The notes under the pieces were generated by a model, which ran no database searches, was not told the DNA's origin, and was given only the letters and a program-made list of their open reading frames with translations. Source: a phage. From it: a DNA stretch of 64,000 nucleotides. Positions 13,814 to 64,000 of this stretch are shown here, piece by piece. The stretch lies in assembly GCA_017686895.1 (NCBI GenBank), contig GCA_017686895.1_4521.1, one strand, 5' to 3'. Every line of letters begins with the position of its first letter. The first letter of the stretch is position 1. The translations under genes were made by a program, and so were the position numbers.

Positions 13814-13829
13814 GGAGACTTCGGTCTCC
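13814..13829 (+). terminator. UUCG-tetraloop hairpin (GGAGAC-TTCG-GTCTCC) after gene 41
   Basis: Perfect 6-bp stem, TTCG loop, followed by TTT. Confidence 0.5.
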
Positions 13830-13836
13830 TTTCGGG

Positions 13837-13866
13837 GTTTACATCTTCCTCTAGGCATGATATGAT
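13837..13866 (+). promoter_or_regulatory. Early-type promoter GTTTAC-N18-TATGAT
   Basis: Spacer contains TTCCTCT, complementary to the downstream SD AGAGGAA (13883-13889). Confidence 0.5.
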
Positions 13867-14270: not shown

Positions 14271-14299
14271 GTTTACTTCTCCAGTAGTTGTGTTATTAT
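14271..14299 (+). promoter_or_regulatory. Early-type promoter GTTTAC-N17-TATTAT embedded in a 12-bp inverted repeat
   Basis: Arms CTCCAGTAGTTG (14279-14290) and CAACTACTGGAG (14308-14319) flank the -10; the downstream arm contains the SD. Confidence 0.55.
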
Positions 14300-14325
14300 A
14301 GACCTATCAACTACTGGAGAACAAA

Positions 14326-15788: not shown

Positions 15789-15818
15789 GTTTACATTATA
15801 GATGGACTATAGTATAGT
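15789..15818 (+). promoter_or_regulatory. Early-type promoter GTTTAC-N18-TATAGT
   Basis: Followed by AGTCCTATCAA box; imperfect inverted repeat GGACTA/TAGTCC around the -10. Confidence 0.45.
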
Positions 15819-15847
15819 AGTCCTATCAAATTAACTAAGGAGTTAAA

Positions 15848-19627: not shown

Positions 19628-19635
19628 ATAATTTA

Positions 19636-19660
19636 AGGAATCCTTCGGGATTCCTTTTTT
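19636..19660 (+). terminator. Rho-independent terminator (AGGAATCC-TTCG-GGATTCCT plus T-run) after soc
   Basis: 8-bp stem, UUCG loop, TTTTT tail. Confidence 0.7.
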
Positions 19661-20798: not shown

Positions 20799-20979
20799 TA
20801 TGGACCTTATGAGTATGTTTGACGAGCCTGAAGTTGAGGCTCCTAAAGTGCATCGTAGTGAACTTGTTGATGAACTAGATAGTATTATACAACGACACGG
20901 CTTTAGTTTACCATTAGATGTCCTGAAAGACCTCGCCTCTTATTATGATGACCCTCCACCATGGAGTCCTTGGAAATGA
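20791..20979 (+). CDS. Hypothetical protein
   Basis: 62-aa ORF, acidic. Confidence 0.4.
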   Translation: MNNMDLMSMFDEPEVEAPKVHRSELVDELDSIIQRHGFSLPLDVLKDLASYYDDPPPWSPWK

Positions 20980-21139
20980 AAGAGAAATTGAAAGAGAAAT
21001 TCTTACTAGAAATCAAGGAAAAAGACTTTGAGACATGGTATCGAATGGTGAAAGGGTTGACATTGCTTTTTAAAGCATCGTTATTCGTGTTAGAACAACC
21101 TGGCCCTGATGGACCTTTAGTAGGAAAGCTTAAAAAGTA

Positions 21140-21168
21140 GTTTACATTCCCTCCTCTCGTGTTATGAT
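21140..21168 (+). promoter_or_regulatory. Early-type promoter GTTTAC-N17-TATGAT
   Basis: The G of GTTTAC is the last base of the upstream TAG stop; spacer CCTCC is complementary to downstream SD GGAGG. Confidence 0.5.
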
Positions 21169-21195
21169 AGGCTTATCTTTAAATGGAGGTCTATC

Positions 21196-21777
21196 ATGAC
21201 ATGTCAATCTGAACTTCAAGAACGCGAATATCTCGCAGCACTAATTGATGATAAATTCACTAAACAAGAACAAAACATTCTCTGGGCTTGCACTGATTAT
21301 AAGGAAGACCCGGATTTCCACTATGAATTAGACCATCTTGTTCGTAAGCATATGACTTCTACAGTACCAGTAGAACTCTACCGTGGTGTAACTCCAGAAG
21401 AAGTAGAACGTCTTTCCCTTCTTTCTGTTGGATGTCATTGGTCTCCCGGACGAGTAACATCGTTTACAACAGACTTTGGTACGGCCAGACAGTTCTCTGG
21501 GAGTTGGGAATATCAAACGTACACTATTCTTAGTCTCAGGAATGCTCCGTTCATTTTCGATTACTACCAAAACATGGTTAACATTGTACTCGCCGGAAAG
21601 AACCCTAAGCATGTTATGGAAGAAAAACGTGTTGACGTCCTAGATATGATTGAATCTGAACAAGAATACATGGTCTCAGGTATCTCTAGATTTGAGATTG
21701 TAGAAATTGAAGACTTAGAATATGACCCTTTATCTCGGTTATACAAAATCATTCATTTGAAAATGTTGAATTTTTAG
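21196..21777 (+). CDS. modB: ADP-ribosyltransferase, ModB-like
   Basis: R-S-E ART motifs: LYRG, SFTTDF, ESEQEYMV; T4 order modB-modA in this direction. Confidence 0.6.
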   Translation: MTCQSELQEREYLAALIDDKFTKQEQNILWACTDYKEDPDFHYELDHLVRKHMTSTVPVELYRGVTPEEVERLSLLSVGCHWSPGRVTSFTTDFGTARQFSGSWEYQTYTILSLRNAPFIFDYYQNMVNIVLAGKNPKHVMEEKRVDVLDMIESEQEYMVSGISRFEIVEIEDLEYDPLSRLYKIIHLKMLNF

Positions 21778-21834
21778 TGTACAAACTCTTCCGATGATGA
21801 TACTATACCTTTATCAACCACAGGAGAAACCTAA

Positions 21835-27248: not shown

Positions 27249-27773
27249 ATGTTAGTTTACCGCGTAGAACGTAGTTTTTGCACTCAACGTGAATCATTAC
27301 CAGGAATTGCTATCGAAGACGGTAAAGCCGTCAGAATTTGGGAAACCTCTTGGAATAAAGAACCTCGTTCGCCATACGGTTGGTCGGGCACCGACAACTC
27401 TGAAGAAACATGGGAGTTCCTTGATAAGCATGGAATACTCTCAGGTAACTTCTACCATCACGGCGACAACTATAATGTCCCTAATCGTCCTACAGTAAAT
27501 GAAGACAAACTTCTTGAACAAAATATCTTAAGATACCATAGAATTGAGTACACATTTGAATTGAGTGAAGATTGGGCTCAAGGGTTCTATTTTGGATTTG
27601 AAAGCGTTGACGCGGTTTATGCATGGTTTGATGACCAGGTGGATGTTGAACTCTTGAAAGCTAAAGGATACTACATCGCGGTCTATGAAGCACCTGATTT
27701 CATCCTCGGAAGTTGTCAATTAATGTTTAGACGTTCATTGGCAGAACAAGTTGATTTTATTTTGCTAAAATGA
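27249..27773 (+). CDS. Hypothetical protein
   Basis: 174-aa ORF. Confidence 0.5.
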   Translation: MLVYRVERSFCTQRESLPGIAIEDGKAVRIWETSWNKEPRSPYGWSGTDNSEETWEFLDKHGILSGNFYHHGDNYNVPNRPTVNEDKLLEQNILRYHRIEYTFELSEDWAQGFYFGFESVDAVYAWFDDQVDVELLKAKGYYIAVYEAPDFILGSCQLMFRRSLAEQVDFILLK

Positions 27774-27830
27774 TGTACAACAACTATGGTCTATGATACT
27801 ATAGACCTATCAAAACAAGAGGAGAATATT

Positions 27831-28058
27831 ATGAAACGTCAAATCATTAAAAACGTAACTACTGATTCAAACATCGATGAGTTTGAAGATGTTCTGTTTA
27901 ATCCTGATTTAGTTGTTGTACAGAAAAACTGGACCAGATTTTTATGCTACACCGAAGTGGTTTACGTTTACGAAAAACTCGGCGATGAAATGCCTATCTA
28001 CGGTATCTTCCGTGAAATCACTGAAAACGGTACAACTTATTGGAAGGAAACTTACTAA
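27831..28058 (+). CDS. Hypothetical protein
   Basis: 75 aa from ATG 27831 (SD GAGGAGA). Confidence 0.45.
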
Positions 28059-36411: not shown

Positions 36412-36441
36412 GTTTACAACTAAGTAGGACTATGATATAGT
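36412..36441 (+). promoter_or_regulatory. Early-type promoter GTTTAC-N18-TATAGT
   Basis: Followed by AGTCCTATC box. Confidence 0.45.
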
Positions 36442-36467
36442 AGTCCTATCTAAAAGAGGATAACATC

Positions 36468-36923: not shown

Positions 36924-36953
36924 GTTTACATCATGGTAGGATTATGGTATAGT
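36924..36953 (+). promoter_or_regulatory. Early-type promoter GTTTAC-N18-TATAGT
   Basis: Followed by AGTCCTATCAA box. Confidence 0.45.
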
Positions 36954-36981
36954 AGTCCTATCAAAACACGAGGAATACAAA

Positions 36982-37184: not shown

Positions 37185-37221
37185 TTGTACAAACTCTTGA
37201 GAGCAGAGTATAATGCTCTCA
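37185..37221 (+). promoter_or_regulatory. Promoter-like element TTGTAC-N18-TATAAT with flanking inverted repeat
   Basis: TGAGAGC (37198-37204) and GCTCTCA (37215-37221) bracket the -10. Confidence 0.4.
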
Positions 37222-37258
37222 TGGATTACAAAAACATTAATCAATTGAGGAAATTAGC

Positions 37259-37705
37259 ATGTCCAAATATTTAACTCGTAAAGACCTTCTGGCCGTTGGC
37301 GGTGAAGTTGTTGCAGTAGTTCGTAATGGTGAATACGGTTCCGAAGTTTCTAAAGAGTTTCGTTCTCGTGAAGGTTTTTACTTCTTTGTTAAAGGTTCAT
37401 CTGACTGGCGACAAGTAGCAGCACGATTCTTTGTAGGACGTCAACGTTCTAAACAAGGGTTAGATGCAATTCTTTCTCACATTCGTCAAGGCCGTTCACA
37501 ACTAGCTCGTACCATGGGTACTAATAATATTGAATATGACGTAATTTTTGTTTCAGCCAAGAACATGAAACCTCTGACCACTGGTTATGGTAAAGGTCAA
37601 TTGGCTCTGGCATTCACTCGCAATCATTCATCAGAATATCAAACACTCACTGAAATGAACCGTCTCCTGGCTGATAATTTCAAATTCATTCTGCAGAGTT
37701 ACTAA
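37259..37705 (+). CDS. ndd: Nucleoid disruption protein Ndd
   Basis: 148 aa; FYVGNQRSKQG...LSHIRQ.RSQLART...[19 protein letters not shown] matches recalled T4 Ndd. Confidence 0.8.
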
Positions 37706-39470: not shown

Positions 39471-39492
39471 GTGCATTTTTTCTCACAAAACA

Positions 39493-39521
39493 GTTTACAT
39501 GTGCTTCAAACGTGATATTAT
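39493..39521 (+). promoter_or_regulatory. Early-type promoter GTTTAC-N17-TATTAT with TGCTTCA in the spacer
   Basis: Followed by AGACCTATCAAAAC; near-duplicate of the promoter at 39814. Confidence 0.55.
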
Positions 39522-39560
39522 AGACCTATCAAAACAAAACAACCAAATTGGAGAAATAAA

Positions 39561-39776
39561 ATGTCTAAAATGAAATTAACCCAAAACACAACTACTCGTT
39601 TCGGTAAAGTCAAACCCGGTATGAATGCTCTCCGTAAAGCACTTGTTGAAGAATTAAATTTCTTAGAAGTTGAAATCAATTCTTTAGTGGTTCGCGGTTC
39701 AAATGGACATCATTTAGAAAAGCTTCGTTCTAAAAAGGCAAAACTTATTAGCCTTATTAAAGAAATGAGTTTGTAA
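39561..39776 (+). CDS. Hypothetical protein
   Basis: 71-aa ORF; N-terminus similar to the motA N-terminus (MSK..., shared leader TTGGAGAAATAAAATGTCTAAA). Confidence 0.45.
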   Translation: MSKMKLTQNTTTRFGKVKPGMNALRKALVEELNFLEVEINSLVVRGSNGHHLEKLRSKKAKLISLIKEMSL

Positions 39777-39813
39777 ATTTTACCAGGGCTTTTGAAAAAG
39801 AGCCCAAAATAAA

Positions 39814-39842
39814 GTTTACTTTTGCTTCAAACATGATATTAT
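39814..39842 (+). promoter_or_regulatory. Early-type promoter GTTTAC-N17-TATTAT for motA
   Basis: Spacer contains TTTGCTTCA; followed by AGACCTATCAAAC. Confidence 0.55.
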
Positions 39843-39878
39843 AGACCTATCAAACAAATACTAATTTGGAGAAATAAA

Positions 39879-40511
39879 ATGTCTAAAGTTACTTACATCA
39901 TCAAAGCTTCTGAAAACGCTCTGAATGAAAAAACTGCTGCAATAATGGTTTATATCATTAAGAACAACTTCACCACTGCTGCCAATGTCCGTGAAGCTCT
40001 GAAAGCGGAATACAATGCATCGGTTGTTAACTCTAACATTGGTGTATTGATTAAAAAAGGTTTAGTCGAAAAATCCGGTGATGGACTTGTGGCAACCGGC
40101 GAAGCAATGGATATTATCCAAAAAGCTGCAGACCTATTTGCTCAAGAAAATGCTCCAGAACTTCTCCAGAAACGTAACACCAGAAAAGCACGTGGAGTTA
40201 CTCCTGAAATGCATGAACTAGCGAACTTTGTTTTTGAAAATATTAAAGATAAAGTTGAAGTTAAAGAAATTGGTGAAAACCGTAGTAACTTAGAAGTTCG
40301 ATTCGCTAAACGAGTTCTAGGCATTCGCCAAATTGAAATTCGACGAGATGGCGCTCTTAGAATCTTTGCATACAACATGTCAGAAACTGAATCAAAGCTG
40401 TTTACTTCTCTTGAAAATGATGTTAAGATTAAAATCGGTGGTAAATATACTTACATTGACTTCCCTAATGTGTCCAAAGAAATCATTACCCTTGTAACTA
40501 ACGTACTGTGA
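39879..40511 (+). CDS. motA: Middle-transcription activator MotA
   Basis: 210 aa; MSKVTYIIKAS...NSNIGVLIKKGLVEKSGDGL matches recalled T4 MotA. Confidence 0.85.
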   Translation: MSKVTYIIKASENALNEKTAAIMVYIIKNNFTTAANVREALKAEYNASVVNSNIGVLIKKGLVEKSGDGLVATGEAMDIIQKAADLFAQENAPELLQKRNTRKARGVTPEMHELANFVFENIKDKVEVKEIGENRSNLEVRFAKRVLGIRQIEIRRDGALRIFAYNMSETESKLFTSLENDVKIKIGGKYTYIDFPNVSKEIITLVTNVL

Positions 40512-56412: not shown

Positions 56413-56439
56413 GAGTATCTGTAAATTGCCGAAAAAGTT

Positions 56440-56468
56440 GTTTACTTCTTCCCTGGATGTGTTAGTAT
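56440..56468 (+). promoter_or_regulatory. Early-type promoter GTTTAC-N17-TAGTAT
   Basis: Followed by AGACTTATCAACAAC. Confidence 0.45.
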
Positions 56469-56497: not shown

Positions 56498-56890
56498 ATG
56501 GAAATCGGAAAATCTTATATCATTAACCCTTTATTTAAAGACGACTTTGTTCAAGAAGCACCACACAATAACGCTAAGATGTTAAAATTAATTGAACTCC
56601 ACGGGCCTAGTTTTGTTGTAAACGGAATGGAACCTGATTATGATAGCGATACGTCAAACGTAGTAAGTGTAACTATGGAAGATGGTACTGTATGTTCTGC
56701 CGGTGGTGAAATTGAAACTTATTTTGAGATTTATCCTGACGAGTTCAAATACTTTATTGAGGTAGATTTAGTAAAGCCTCAACCTACTAACGAAGGTATA
56801 ACTTTAGGTGTAACAAAAATCCATTGTATCGTAGATGAAACCAACGTCGACGAAATCATCAAACTTTTGCAAAAAACTTTTAAAAAGTAG
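56498..56890 (+). CDS. Hypothetical protein (frd.3 position)
   Basis: 130-aa ORF. Confidence 0.5.
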   Translation: MEIGKSYIINPLFKDDFVQEAPHNNAKMLKLIELHGPSFVVNGMEPDYDSDTSNVVSVTMEDGTVCSAGGEIETYFEIYPDEFKYFIEVDLVKPQPTNEGITLGVTKIHCIVDETNVDEIIKLLQKTFKK

Positions 56891-56927
56891 TTTATAACAA
56901 GATAGGGTTATGTTATAGTAGCCCTAT
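56890..56927 (+). promoter_or_regulatory. Early-type promoter GTTTAT-N18-TATAGT with flanking inverted repeat
   Basis: G of the -35 is the last base of the TAG stop; ATAGGGTTA / TAGCCCTAT arms bracket the -10. Confidence 0.45.
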
Positions 56928-56953
56928 CAAATAAAAGTGAAGAGGAGAATAAA

Positions 56954-63558: not shown

Positions 63559-63969
63559 ATGAAAGATATTGCCGCCGAATATTCCTTTATTAAATATACA
63601 GAATTGGAGCTATTAGAAGATGCAACAATTAAAACAGTCGACGTCCCTAATAAGAAAAATGTCATATACGCTATTGCTATAGATGACGAACTTTTGTATA
63701 TTGGTAAAACCAAGAATTTAAAGAAACGCATTAACTATTATCGAACAGCCATAAATCGAAAAGACCAGACTTCAGATTCAAGAAAATCACTTATGATTTT
63801 GGATGCCTTAATGCAAGGCAAAAAGGTTGAATTCTGGGCCCGCCAATGTTTTGACCTTTCAGTCACTAACGAACTTGGTTCAATGACCATTGCAACAATG
63901 GACCTTGAAGAACCACTTTTTATCAAAAAGTTCAACCCGCCTTGGAATATCCAACATAAGAAAAAGTAG
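63559..63969 (+). CDS. denA: Endonuclease II DenA (GIY-YIG nuclease)
   Basis: 136 aa, same length as T4 EndoII; VIYAIAID...LLYIGKTKNLKKRI GIY-YIG motif; position after nrdB. Confidence 0.75.
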   Translation: MKDIAAEYSFIKYTELELLEDATIKTVDVPNKKNVIYAIAIDDELLYIGKTKNLKKRINYYRTAINRKDQTSDSRKSLMILDALMQGKKVEFWARQCFDLSVTNELGSMTIATMDLEEPLFIKKFNPPWNIQHKKK

Positions 63970-64000
63970 TTTACATACCACAAGGATTGTGGTACAATTT

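Follow-up and report, generated by a model that had tools for sequence, protein, structure and literature searches.

The window analyzed here (the whole 64,000-nucleotide stretch of phage DNA) is 97–98% identical to Mosigvirus genomes and is identified by its sequence as early-region DNA of a Mosigvirus, a coliphage of the T4 type that resembles RB69. The genes mrh, modA/B, srd, dda, and their neighbors are encoded on the + strand, which also carries all of the approximately 22 copies of a T4-type early-promoter cassette. These candidate promoters precede modB, modA, srd, motA, frd.1, rnh, and others in the same orientation as the genes, and T4 carries promoters at the orthologous sites, with the same early genes downstream. 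Moreover, 19 of the 58 early promoters predicted for RB69 (Nolan et al. 2006, PMC1524935, Additional file 3) map to the window with 96–100% identity.

A scan of the window for GTTTAC-N16-19-TANNNT returned 21 matches against 4.4 expected, and 18 of the 21 are on the + strand. A generic sigma-70 promoter scan of the window found 62 sites against 57 expected and did not separate them from background, so T4-type criteria are needed. The -35 element is GTTTAC at 15 of the 22 window sites, with GTGTAC (two sites), GTTTAT, ATTTAC, ATGTAC, and TTGTAC as variants. It is spaced 17 or 18 nt from a TAnnnT -10 whose T(-12), A(-11), and T(-7) never vary, and 17 of 21 promoters have TG at -15/-14. At positions -43 to -40, A is found in 11–14 of 19 window promoters and in 25–48 of 55 RB69 promoters. 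Of 19 window promoters, 13 have a leader of 20–24 nt, and a Shine-Dalgarno sequence and an ATG follow the leader. The early promoters (Pe) of T4, reviewed by Hinton (2010, PMC2988021), likewise combine an A-rich, UP-like tract near -42 with GTTTAC at -36 to -31, TGn, and a TAnnnT -10, and the RB69 paper reports GTTTAC, an A-rich tract at -40 to -44, and a preference for C at -3 to -1 (PMC1524935). The window sites are thereby supported as T4-type early promoters, as predicted from sequence and T4 geometry. Annotated promoter features were looked for in the T4 GenBank record and none is present; our comparison with T4 draws on sequence scans and on three start-site map units (PMC6024815). The RB69 set comprises the 55 of 58 published sites that lie outside RB69 100–130 kb, a region with three promoters.

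If these cassettes work as their T4 counterparts do, the A-rich tract at approximately -44 to -39 would be a proximal UP-element subsite for the RNA polymerase alpha-CTD, and GTTTAC (-36 to -31) would be the sigma-70 region 4 site. The order of elements then continues with the 17/18-nt spacer ending in TGn, the TAnnnT -10, a downstream box, and a short G-poor leader, usually 20–24 nt, that leads to the Shine-Dalgarno sequence and the ATG.

Several of these promoters begin inside the preceding gene. Upstream of modB, the + strand ORF 20961–21140 (a homologue of RB69ORF020c) ends in KLKK and a stop codon. Its last two Lys codons, AAA AAG (21132–21137), supply the modB early promoter with its A-rich, UP-like tract, and the GTTTAC -35 (21140–21145), to which RB69 Pe:13466 maps with 99% identity, starts at the G of the ORF's TAG stop (21138–21140). 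A TGt extended -10 (21160–21168, with the hexamer TATGAT at 21163–21168) and a degenerate box, AGGCTTATCTT (21169–21179), follow, and the predicted +1, placed by T4 map-unit geometry, is the A at 21175. The A-rich tract at -40 to -44 is conserved across the 55 RB69 promoters, and T4 has AAAAAGTT as non-coding DNA before modB. The same arrangement recurs on the + strand at the end of frd.2 (ORF 56498–56890, ending in TFKK and a stop), where AAA AAG TAG overlaps the GTTTAT -35 of the frd.1 promoter (56882–56895), and at the end of denA (ORF 63559–63969, ending in HKKK and a stop), where AAA AAG TAG overlaps the GTTTAC -35 of the rnlA promoter (63961–63974; RB69 Pe:139277). The rnlA promoter has the -10 TACAAT (63993–63998, +), and the window stops short of its +1. 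At all three ORF ends, then, a KK-stop shares the G of TAG with the -35, and the Lys codons plus TAG double as A-tract and first -35 position, exactly as the initial annotation had described.

Two further stop/-35 overlaps on the + strand had escaped that annotation. At 21777, the modB stop TAG (21775–21777) overlaps the GTGTAC -35 (21777–21782) of the modA promoter (RB69 Pe:12829), and at 27773 the TGA stop of ORF 27249–27773 overlaps a variant -35, ATGTAC (27773–27778; the whole overlap spans 27771–27778; RB69 Pe:6863), which is followed by the -10 TACTAT (27797–27802) and the box AGACCTATCAA (27803–27813, predicted +1 at 27809). The junction sequence itself, AAAAAGTAGTTTAC, is exact at 21132–21145 and 63961–63974 and has one mismatch at 56882–56895 (GTTTAT). 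A fourth match, also with one mismatch, is AAAAAGTTGTTTAC at 56432–56445 (+), where the upstream promoter consensus is non-coding and contains no stop. Together the exact and one-mismatch matches in the window number 4, compared with 0.04 expected from shuffles.

Taken as sequence, AAAAAGTAGTTTAC is the upstream part of the early-promoter consensus (AAAAAGT-N-GTTTAC, with A at -37) read in one frame. Genes are so tightly packed that the reading frame of the preceding ORF runs on into the promoter until it meets an in-frame stop; an upstream ORF entering the promoter would translate the A-tract as Lys-Lys and take T(-38)A(-37)G(-36) as its stop. Short KK-stop tails and tight gene/promoter overlaps in T4-like phages would thus follow from the promoter consensus being read as codons. 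We read the junction as dual use imposed by genome compaction and not as a special module or dedicated element. An alternative is that the junction was selected as a dual-coding module that, for example, couples translation termination to promoter use. Its 3–5 recurrences in the window are in keeping with such a module, as is the frd.2 junction, which T4 shares with this phage down to the identical TFKK-stop (AAAAAGTAGTTTAC at T4 146143). Offset 0 is also the commonest class of stop position in RB69, again as a module would predict. Genes nevertheless run up to the promoter in general: of the 22 upstream stops in the window, 11 end 0 to -6 from the -35 and 5 of these share their last base with it, and 28 of 47 upstream ORFs in RB69 stop 0 to -10 from the -35. 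The RB69 stops are scattered over offsets 0 to -10 and use TAA, TAG, and TGA, and TAG at -38 to -36 occurs in 10 of 55 RB69 promoters, no more often than the approximately 10 predicted from column frequencies (8 of these 10 close ORFs of at least 63 codons). The same consensus is moreover non-coding both at 56432 and in T4, which has AAAAAGTTGTTTAC ahead of modB as well as several AAAGTTGTTTAC promoters, and at the denA/rnlA junction, where this phage has an early-type -35, the KKK tail of T4 denA instead adjoins a MotA-box middle promoter. We therefore consider a selected module highly improbable. The ends of T4 genes 41 and 60 also show TAG/-35 overlaps, and published work on T4-like phages already describes this layout, which makes the finding real but ordinary.

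The second feature of these cassettes lies downstream of the -10. The sequence CCTATCAA occurs 7 times in 128 kb (both strands of the window), always on the + strand and each time 3 nt after an early-promoter -10, which bears out the earlier proposal of a conserved promoter module that extends to the box. The 11-mer (A/T)G(A/T)CCTATCAA has 6 exact copies, all at promoters, against approximately 0.2 expected from a composition estimate. At two mismatches the 11-mer search gave 70 matches against 72 expected by chance, and the search is informative only for exact and one-mismatch matches. Copies on the + strand include AGACCTATCAA at 14300–14310 (predicted +1 at 14306), AGTCCTATCAA at 15819–15829 (+1 at 15825) and at 36954–36964 (+1 at 36960), and AGCCCTATCAA of the frd.1 promoter at 56920–56930 (+1 at the A at 56926). 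Two more copies of AGACCTATCAA, at 39522–39532 (+1 at 39528) and 39843–39853 (+1 at 39849), belong to the first and second copies of a duplicated promoter cassette, the second being the motA promoter.

That most promoters in the window share the box, as first noted, holds for its core and not for its strict form. Among the 21 promoters evaluable in our recount, TATC at -1 to +3 is found in 16, C(-3) in 18, T(-1) in 19, A(+1) in 21, T(+2) in 17, and C(+3) in 17, so most positions are kept in 16–19 of 21; the strict 11-mer is found in only 6 of 21 and CCTATCAA in 7 of 21. Column frequencies from a set of 19 promoters were similar (C-3 in 16, T-1 in 18, A+1 in 19, and C+3 in 16 of 19) and give an information content near that of the -10 and -35, while position -4 is unconstrained. 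The three junction promoters are likewise uneven: only 56890 has the full box and 21140 has the degenerate AGGCTTATCTT, while for 63969 the window ends before the box position, at which the RB69 orthologue lacks a box. The published RB69 predictions give an independent test of the box. In RB69 the four bases just past the published model are TCAA in 22 of 55 promoters and begin with TC in 31 of 55, where approximately 0.3 are expected from base composition. The published model ends at the start-site A and leaves this TCAA outside. Beyond RB69, GTTTAC-N17/18-TANNNT-NNN-CCTATCAA is found in at least 120 IMG/VR contig stretches, many of them on contigs of approximately 160–175 kb.

The register of the box points to its role. 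The box is invariably 3 nt from the end of the -10, but anywhere from 20 to 43 nt from the ATG, which argues that it belongs to the promoter and not to the ribosome-binding site. In T4, the start-site map units 35,662, 41,225, and 150,727 (PMC6024815) equal the coordinate of the -35 G minus 36 in our scan, and by this rule the A of ccTAtcaa is the predicted +1. One of the three reference promoters, Pe40.4, has C where geometry puts the +1, and the published T4 units may therefore be geometric and not precise to the nucleotide. The sequence after the -10 would accordingly be numbered A(-6) G(-5) W C(-3) C(-2) T(-1) A(+1) T(+2) C(+3) A A. In this register G(-5) would fit sigma region 1.2, T(-1)/A(+1) would be the preferred pyrimidine/purine start, and the box would fix initiation at the A, 7 nt past the -10, favoring strong initiation. 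The strong conservation of C(-3), C(-2), and C(+3) is not explained by any established RNA polymerase contact. Sequence and T4 geometry are the basis from which promoter activity and the exact +1 are inferred, together with the polymerase contacts, and the window very probably holds a T4-type early-promoter module in which the junction arises by compaction and the box combines discriminator, start site, and first transcribed bases. If so, early start sites in RB69-like phages would be predictable to the nucleotide, as the A of TATCAA, and the lineage-enriched C-3, T-1, A+1, T+2, and C+3 would bear on how these promoters outcompete those of the host.

Comparable start regions occur in other phages. 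Both T7 A1 (...cagccATCGA at the annotated start, 498) and lambda PL (...gagcacATCAG) have A(+1)T(+2)C(+3) and a C-containing discriminator, the lambda PL start being, we assume, the A of ATCAG. Unlike the window promoters, these two have a -35 of the TTGAC type and lack a conserved C-3/T-1 pair. Within the T4-type phages the box is unevenly distributed: the TATC(AA) core is found in 16 of 21 promoters here and is also commoner in RB69, unlike T4, where it is found in approximately 7 of approximately 24 scanned. Its rarity in T4 means that early promoters of the T4 type can function without the box, which may in part be a habit of the lineage. Two known motifs were compared with the box. TATCAA is similar to one half of the IHF consensus, WATCAA, and an IHF site was rejected since the TTR half is absent at the right spacing in the promoter sequences inspected. 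The NAD-capping consensus, which favors a purine at -1, was rejected as well, the box having T at -1.

The transcribed part of the box, 5'-AUCAA and the A/C-rich, G-poor leader, could alternatively be an RNA signal that stabilizes the 5' end or enhances translation from short leaders. Positions +2 to +10 are indeed conserved or biased in composition and almost free of G before the Shine-Dalgarno sequence, and the leaders are short (mostly 20–24 nt) and unstructured, with predicted folding energies near 0. But C-3 and T-1, which are among the most conserved positions, are not transcribed, and the constant distance is to the -10 and not to the Shine-Dalgarno sequence or ATG, so we regard an RNA signal as improbable. 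Less probable by far is a role for CCTATCAA as the operator of a phage or host protein that acts in trans, such as an early-promoter shut-off factor. Conservation does extend past the known RNA polymerase contacts, to a place where a bound protein would block initiation; the box nonetheless has no dyad symmetry, there is no candidate binding protein, and T4 early promoters are also shut off on schedule, mostly without the box.

Part of the conservation reflects shared descent, as many promoters fall into sequence families. Cassettes of a related kind have been described as PeSLs, in which an upstream stop within an AT-rich tract is followed by a stem-loop between or over the -35 and -10, a Shine-Dalgarno sequence, and an ATG (Arbiol 2010, PMC2839356; Comeau 2014, PMC4122927). 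PeSLs have been described for RB49/phi1, T4/PST, and KVP40/nt-1, and not for RB69-like phages. The cassettes in the window resemble them in the upstream stop within an AT-rich tract by the -35, in a stem-loop with G-T pairs, in the Shine-Dalgarno sequence and ATG at the 3' end, and in being repeated many times among small early ORFs. The box might therefore be kept mainly by descent and recombination, PeSL cassettes being copied between sites by homologous recombination with the box hitch-hiking and having no function of its own. Such shuffling by PeSLs is documented (PMC2839356, PMC4122927), and near-identical cassettes do occur here at non-orthologous sites (39484–39569 and 39805–39887; the group 15789/36412/36924/56890). 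The first pair are direct repeats that flank a 71-aa ORF (39561–39776) found in 77 of 154 Mosigvirus records and absent in about half, as in PeSL-mediated exchange, although this is a single case. Furthermore, a T4 spacer, taccacaaggatgtgg, is found again at another locus of this phage, and one single-linkage spacer family accounts for 23 of 55 RB69 promoters. Against this, where the spacers of two RB69 promoters are unrelated (mean identity 0.28, close to random), box identity is 0.45, compared with 0.26 expected at random, and the TATC core is present in 11 of 14 RB69 spacer families. Conservation is also position-specific (C-3, T-1, A+1, T+2, and C+3, with -4 free), and the same core is found in T4 and in many IMG/VR contigs. 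Judged on these sequences, box conservation is more than recent copying, and we think it rather unlikely that descent is the main cause.

In a subset of cassettes the AGNCCTA half of the box can also pair with the spacer, so that the two form the 3' and 5' arms of a predicted hairpin equivalent to the PeSL stem-loop. Four clear promoter hairpins are found in the window, and not all promoters have one. The hairpin over the -10 of the frd.1 promoter (56903–56926, +) pairs TAGGGTTA (56903–56910) with TAGCCCTA (56919–56926) around the -10 TATAGT (56914–56919), with a predicted energy of -16.3 kcal/mol (z -5.0). Elsewhere on the + strand, TAGGATTA (36937–36944) pairs with TAGTCCTA (36953–36960) with one G-T wobble, TAGGACTA (36425–36432) pairs with TAGTCCTA (36441–36448) over the -10 and ahead of the box variant AGTCCTATCTA, and the 5' half of the box at 15819 pairs with GGACTA (15804–15809).

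These observations raise a different explanation for the 5' half of the box, namely that AGNCCTA exists as the 3' arm of a stem-loop with the -35/-10 spacer. The hairpin would form in read-through RNA or in single-stranded DNA and would attenuate, terminate, or process upstream transcripts or act as a recombination site, functions of the kind proposed by the PeSL authors (PMC2839356; PMC4122927). Pairing was assessed as duplex energy and longest complement, setting each promoter's own spacer against the spacers of other promoters. A spacer pairs far better with its own -8 to +1 region than with those of other promoters; permutations reached the observed mean in 0 of 5000 cases for RB69 and in 33 of 5000 for the window. 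Duplexes of -8 kcal/mol or better are found in 83 of 324 unique promoters, against 11 ± 3 when permuted, and the non-redundant set has 50 against 5.8. Pairing is also maintained where sequences differ (TAGGACTA/TAGTCCTA, TAGGGTTA/TAGCCCTA, GGTCTAT/ATAGACC, GAGAGC/GCTCTC, GGGAAG/CTTCC), the orthologous frd.1 promoter of T4 pairs GGGTA with TACCC, and the G-T wobbles in the stems fit an RNA helix better than DNA. Yet the box is no less present at promoters whose spacer lacks a complement (39493, 39814, 42309, 15048), and its TCAA half lies outside the stem. Fixed-register covariation is weak (2–7% excess pairing on the expected diagonal across 324 promoters), a result of the stems sitting in different registers. 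Nor are the hairpins good intrinsic terminators: they are A/T-rich, about 8 bp long, and not followed by a U-run, unlike the G/C-rich PeSL stems of RB49, one of which was shown to terminate transcription, so terminator activity here is doubtful. Termination and mini-circle recombination are experimental properties of PeSLs (PMC2839356). Our assessment is that the stem-loop accounts for the 5' half of the box with a likelihood somewhat above that of descent, but still below even.

The main observations all match published accounts and are in that sense already known, from T4 early promoters, from Nolan 2006, and from the PeSL reports (Arbiol 2010; Comeau 2014), and none of our findings alters the T4-type transcription picture. 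Neither spacer/box complementarity nor stop-codon overlap is mentioned in the parts of the RB69 text available to us (PMC1524935). The sole lead beyond the published accounts, and a modest one, is complementarity between the spacer and the Shine-Dalgarno sequence. At the promoters 14271 and 27194, the spacer can pair without a mismatch over 14 and 13 nt, respectively, with the leader of the same promoter, and the paired stretch takes in the Shine-Dalgarno sequence. Read-through RNA is predicted to form hairpins of -21.7 and -23.9 kcal/mol at these sites, while the promoter's own transcript is predicted to be unstructured; the hairpins can form only in RNA started upstream. Complements of 10 bp or longer number 10 among 222 non-redundant promoters, against 0.17 expected.

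In T4 e, soc, 49, and I-TevI, the ribosome-binding site is sequestered in read-through RNA and the proximal promoter lies within the hairpin (Uzan and Miller 2010, PMC3014915). Judged by sequence, the Shine-Dalgarno sequences of 14271 and 27194 could similarly pair upstream of the start. Unlike these T4 genes, in which the promoter inside the hairpin is late and expression is delayed, the embedded promoter here is early and the upstream transcripts are also early. We tentatively suggest, while thinking it rather doubtful, that in a sizeable subset of promoters the spacer has co-evolved to pair with either the start-site box or the gene's own Shine-Dalgarno sequence, leaving read-through RNA blocked and the promoter's own transcript open. 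If this suggestion is correct, read-through RNA would fold, resulting in a translation block, attenuation, or processing, and small early genes would each be insulated and expressed from their own promoter alone. Four classical T4 late-gene cases would then become a genome-wide rule for early genes, which would offer a possible account of the individual dosing of dozens of early genes in tandem.

Duplexes covering the Shine-Dalgarno sequence are modestly enriched overall (32 against 23 ± 3.7), and the pairing is weaker at 13837 and at 21140 than at 14271 and 27194. The latter of the weaker pair is the modB promoter, whose spacer includes CCTCC (21150–21154, +), complementary to the modB Shine-Dalgarno sequence GGAGG (21185–21189; ATG at 21196). 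Its read-through RNA has a predicted fold of -18.7 kcal/mol (z -4.1), compared with -3.0 for the promoter's own transcript.

Across the 4-kb stretch around the junction at 21132, identity is 97–98% to many Mosigvirus phages (RB69-like Straboviridae) of Escherichia and Shigella and merely 60–80% to T4-like records. The + strand gene set in an annotated relative comprises gp61, 56, soc, mrh, modB, modA, srd, dda, dexA, and motB; the window is the prereplicative 'early' region of a T4-type phage. The initial annotation was correct in its observation and essentially right in its interpretation, and the feature is of a known kind, already catalogued in the T4-like lineage. To this we add a TCAA extension past the published RB69 promoter model, the positional purity of the downstream box, an explanation of the KK-TAG junction as consensus plus compaction, and statistics on spacer complementarity.

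A scan of the window for GTTTAC-N16-19-TANNNT returned 21 matches against 4.4 expected, 18 of the 21 on the + strand. In RB69, 58 early promoters have been predicted (Nolan et al. 2006, PMC1524935); our comparison used the published coordinates and most of the RB69 genome, and took in 55 of these sites. Nineteen of the predictions were located in the window at 96–100% identity, giving, with three further sites, ~22 window promoters, 21 of them evaluable downstream. Anchored on the -10, the alignment is A-rich at -43 to -40, followed by GTTTAC, TG at -15/-14, and T(-12)A(-11)...T(-7). T4 early promoters have been described as UP/-35/TGn/-10 with 'additional regions of consensus' (Hinton 2010, PMC2988021), and GTTTAC, an A-rich tract at -40 to -44, and C at -3 to -1 are given for RB69 (Nolan 2006, PMC1524935). 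The window sites are thus predicted, from sequence, to be T4-type early promoters. One (27773–27834; RB69 Pe:6863, a published prediction) has a non-canonical -35, ATGTAC; because its Shine-Dalgarno sequence and ATG at 27832 match the cassette layout, the downstream gene probably does not begin at the mechanical ORF start, 27786. Two others, at 13837 and 19671, directly follow G+C-rich hairpins with T-runs, a terminator-then-promoter layout: GGAGACttcgGTCTCC-TTT at 13814–13829, and AAGGAATCCttcgGGATTCCTT-TTTT at 19635–19656, which lies 3' of soc and is usable on either strand.

The junction sequence AAAAAGTAGTTTAC occurs exactly at 21132 and 63961 and with one mismatch at 56882 (GTTTAT) and 56432 (AAAAAGTTGTTTAC), four matches where 0.04 are expected. 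The initial annotation held that the ORFs upstream of 21132, 56882, and 63961 end in -KK-stop and that the G of the TAG opens the -35 hexamer. Both claims are borne out on the + strand by ORF 20961–21140 (RB69ORF020c homologue; KLKK*), frd.2 (ORF 56498–56890; TFKK*), and denA (ORF 63559–63969; HKKK*), in each of which the G of the TAG is -35 base 1. Two overlaps had been overlooked: the G of the modB TAG is also the first base of GTGTAC at 21777, and the A of a TGA stop (27771–27773) likewise opens the variant -35 ATGTAC.

The three junctions have unrelated flanks and so are not copies of each other; what recurs is the upstream consensus of the promoter itself. Ahead of modB, T4 has a non-coding AAAAAGTTGTTTAC, and several more T4 promoters carry AAAGTTGTTTAC; the end of T4 frd.2 is an identical coding junction (TFKK*, AAAAAGTAGTTTAC), and T4 genes 41 and 60 also end with a TAG/-35 overlap. 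TAG at -38 to -36 is not enriched, as its occurrence in 10 of 55 RB69 promoters equals the ~10 predicted from column frequencies (T 27/55, A 26/55, G 43/55). In eight of these ten it closes an ORF of at least 63 codons. The upstream ORF stops 0 to -10 from the -35 in 28 of 47 RB69 promoters, with 0 the most frequent class and TAA, TAG, and TGA all represented, and 0 to -6 from it in 11 of 22 window promoters. Because the junction is promoter consensus and genes run into promoters, a gene entering in the right frame would have the A-tract read as lysine codons and T-A-G as its stop, and we read the junction as dual use arising via compaction. At the orthologous denA/rnlA junction (T4 137,440–137,560, minus strand; window 63950–64000), T4 DenA also has a KKK tail. 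There, however, the stop codon is a TGA overlapping a MotA box (TGCTTCC), with TACTAT after it, which marks a middle promoter, whereas in the window KKK-TAG is fused to an early-type GTTTAC; the two phages thus have promoters of different classes at this site.

The box is an 11-mer directly after the -10. All seven window copies of CCTATCAA, which lies within it, are on the + strand, each exactly 3 nt past a promoter -10, and the strict 11-mer occurs six times, always at promoters; a two-mismatch search of the window for the 11-mer gave matches at chance level. Tallied across 21 promoters, the box columns give A(-6) 17, G(-5) 11, C(-3) 18, C(-2) 11, and T(-1) 19 on the discriminator side, then A(+1) 21, T(+2) 17, C(+3) 17, A(+4) 14, and A(+5) 17. 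The proposal that most promoters share the box therefore holds for the core (TATC in 16/21; TATCAA in 12/21) and fails for the full 11-mer, which, among the three junction promoters, is found only at 56890 (frd.1). The Nolan RB69 model stops at its terminal A, leaving the four following bases outside it as an independent test: these read TCAA in 22 of 55 RB69 sites, and in 31 of 55 the first two of them are TC. T4 has the core at ~7 of ~24 scanned promoters, making it a lineage-enriched feature, and the composite promoter-plus-box pattern is common in IMG/VR contigs of T4-like size. The distance from box to -10 is constant, while that from box to ATG ranges from 20 to 43 nt. Copying is not sufficient to account for box conservation: where two RB69 promoters have unrelated spacers (identity 0.28), box identity is 0.45 versus 0.26 expected, and the core occurs in 11 of 14 RB69 spacer families. 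The promoter at 37185–37262 (-35 TTGTAC, -10 TATAAT) is without the TATC core (+1 context ctcAtgg); its -10 is enclosed by a GAGAGC (37199–37204)/GCTCTC (37215–37220) stem, and its cassette family, aaactcttgagagcagagtataatgctctc, is a separate one that is also present at three RB69 sites.

Three T4 early start sites (35,662, 41,225, and 150,727; PMC6024815) each equal the -35 G coordinate minus 36 in our T4 scan, so that +1 falls seven bases past the -10. By this geometry the window +1 would be the A of ccTAtcaa, and the box would span -6 to +5, covering discriminator, start site, and the beginning of the transcript. Both G(-5) and the T(-1)/A(+1) step agree with established sigma-70 holoenzyme preferences. 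The box, whose function we infer, has its A-T-C start in common with T7 A1 (...cagccATCGA at annotated start 498) and lambda PL (...gagcacATCAG).

Many spacers between -35 and -10 are complementary to sequence 3' of the -10. In the first class, hairpins enclose the -10, their 3' arm being the AGNCCTA half of the box, and have stems of ~8 bp including G-T wobble pairs; window examples, at -13 to -16 kcal/mol, are 15804–09/15818–23, 36425–32/36441–48, 36937–44/36953–60, and 56903–10/56919–26. Arm sequences vary between paralogues and between T4 and the window phage with pairing retained (TAGGACTA/TAGTCCTA, TAGGGTTA/TAGCCCTA, GGTCTAT/ATAGACC, GAGAGC/GCTCTC, GGGAAG/CTTCC; T4 GGGTA/TACCC). Pairing between spacer and downstream sequence is better within a promoter than between promoters, the RB69 own-pairing mean being reached in 0 of 5000 permutations. 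In a set of 324 unique promoters drawn from the window, T4, RB69, and 120 IMG/VR loci, 83 form duplexes of -8 kcal/mol or better versus 11 ± 3 in permuted pairs (50 versus 5.8 in the non-redundant set).

In a second, smaller class the pairing partner of the spacer is the leader of the same promoter, Shine-Dalgarno sequence included. Perfect complements of 14 bp (14277–14290/14308–14321; -21.7 kcal/mol) and 13 bp (27200–27212/27232–27244; -23.9 kcal/mol) occur at sites where the promoters' own transcripts are unstructured, the hairpin being possible in read-through RNA only. Complements of at least 10 bp are found at 10 of 222 non-redundant T4-type promoters versus 0.17 expected; duplexes covering the Shine-Dalgarno sequence show a modest overall enrichment (32 versus 23 ± 3.7). 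At the modB promoter (21140), CCTCC (21150–21154) lies opposite the modB GGAGG (21185–21189). In T4 e, soc, 49, and I-TevI, a hairpin containing the proximal promoter sequesters the ribosome-binding site (Uzan and Miller 2010, PMC3014915). Spacers may be embedded anti-Shine-Dalgarno sequences or hairpin arms insulating tandem early genes, the sole lead here with some novelty.

Promoter-early stem-loop (PeSL) cassettes are ordered as upstream stop codons in an AT-rich tract, -35, -10, stem-loop, Shine-Dalgarno, and ATG, with the stem-loop mostly between -35 and -10 or over the -10 and including G-T pairs, and they flank ORF indels (Arbiol 2010, PMC2839356; Comeau 2014, PMC4122927). Every sequence-level feature of these cassettes is present in the window. 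Direct repeats at 39484–39569 and 39805–39887, 84–93% identical, each comprise promoter, leader, and ATGTCTAAA; between them, and between gene 52 and motA, lies a 71-aa ORF (39561–39776). The whole 39484–39887 segment is present in only 77 of 154 Mosigvirus records, while the others resemble RB69 in having one copy; a PeSL-type cassette has been inserted or deleted here. The spacer of the rnlA promoter (63969), at 63975–63992, is ataccacaaggattgtgg, with an internal CCACA/TGTGG stem, and a nearly identical spacer occurs in T4 at other loci, 2458 and 167086 (gene 60/rIIA.1 junction; upstream of denB), which points to movement of promoter cassettes from site to site.
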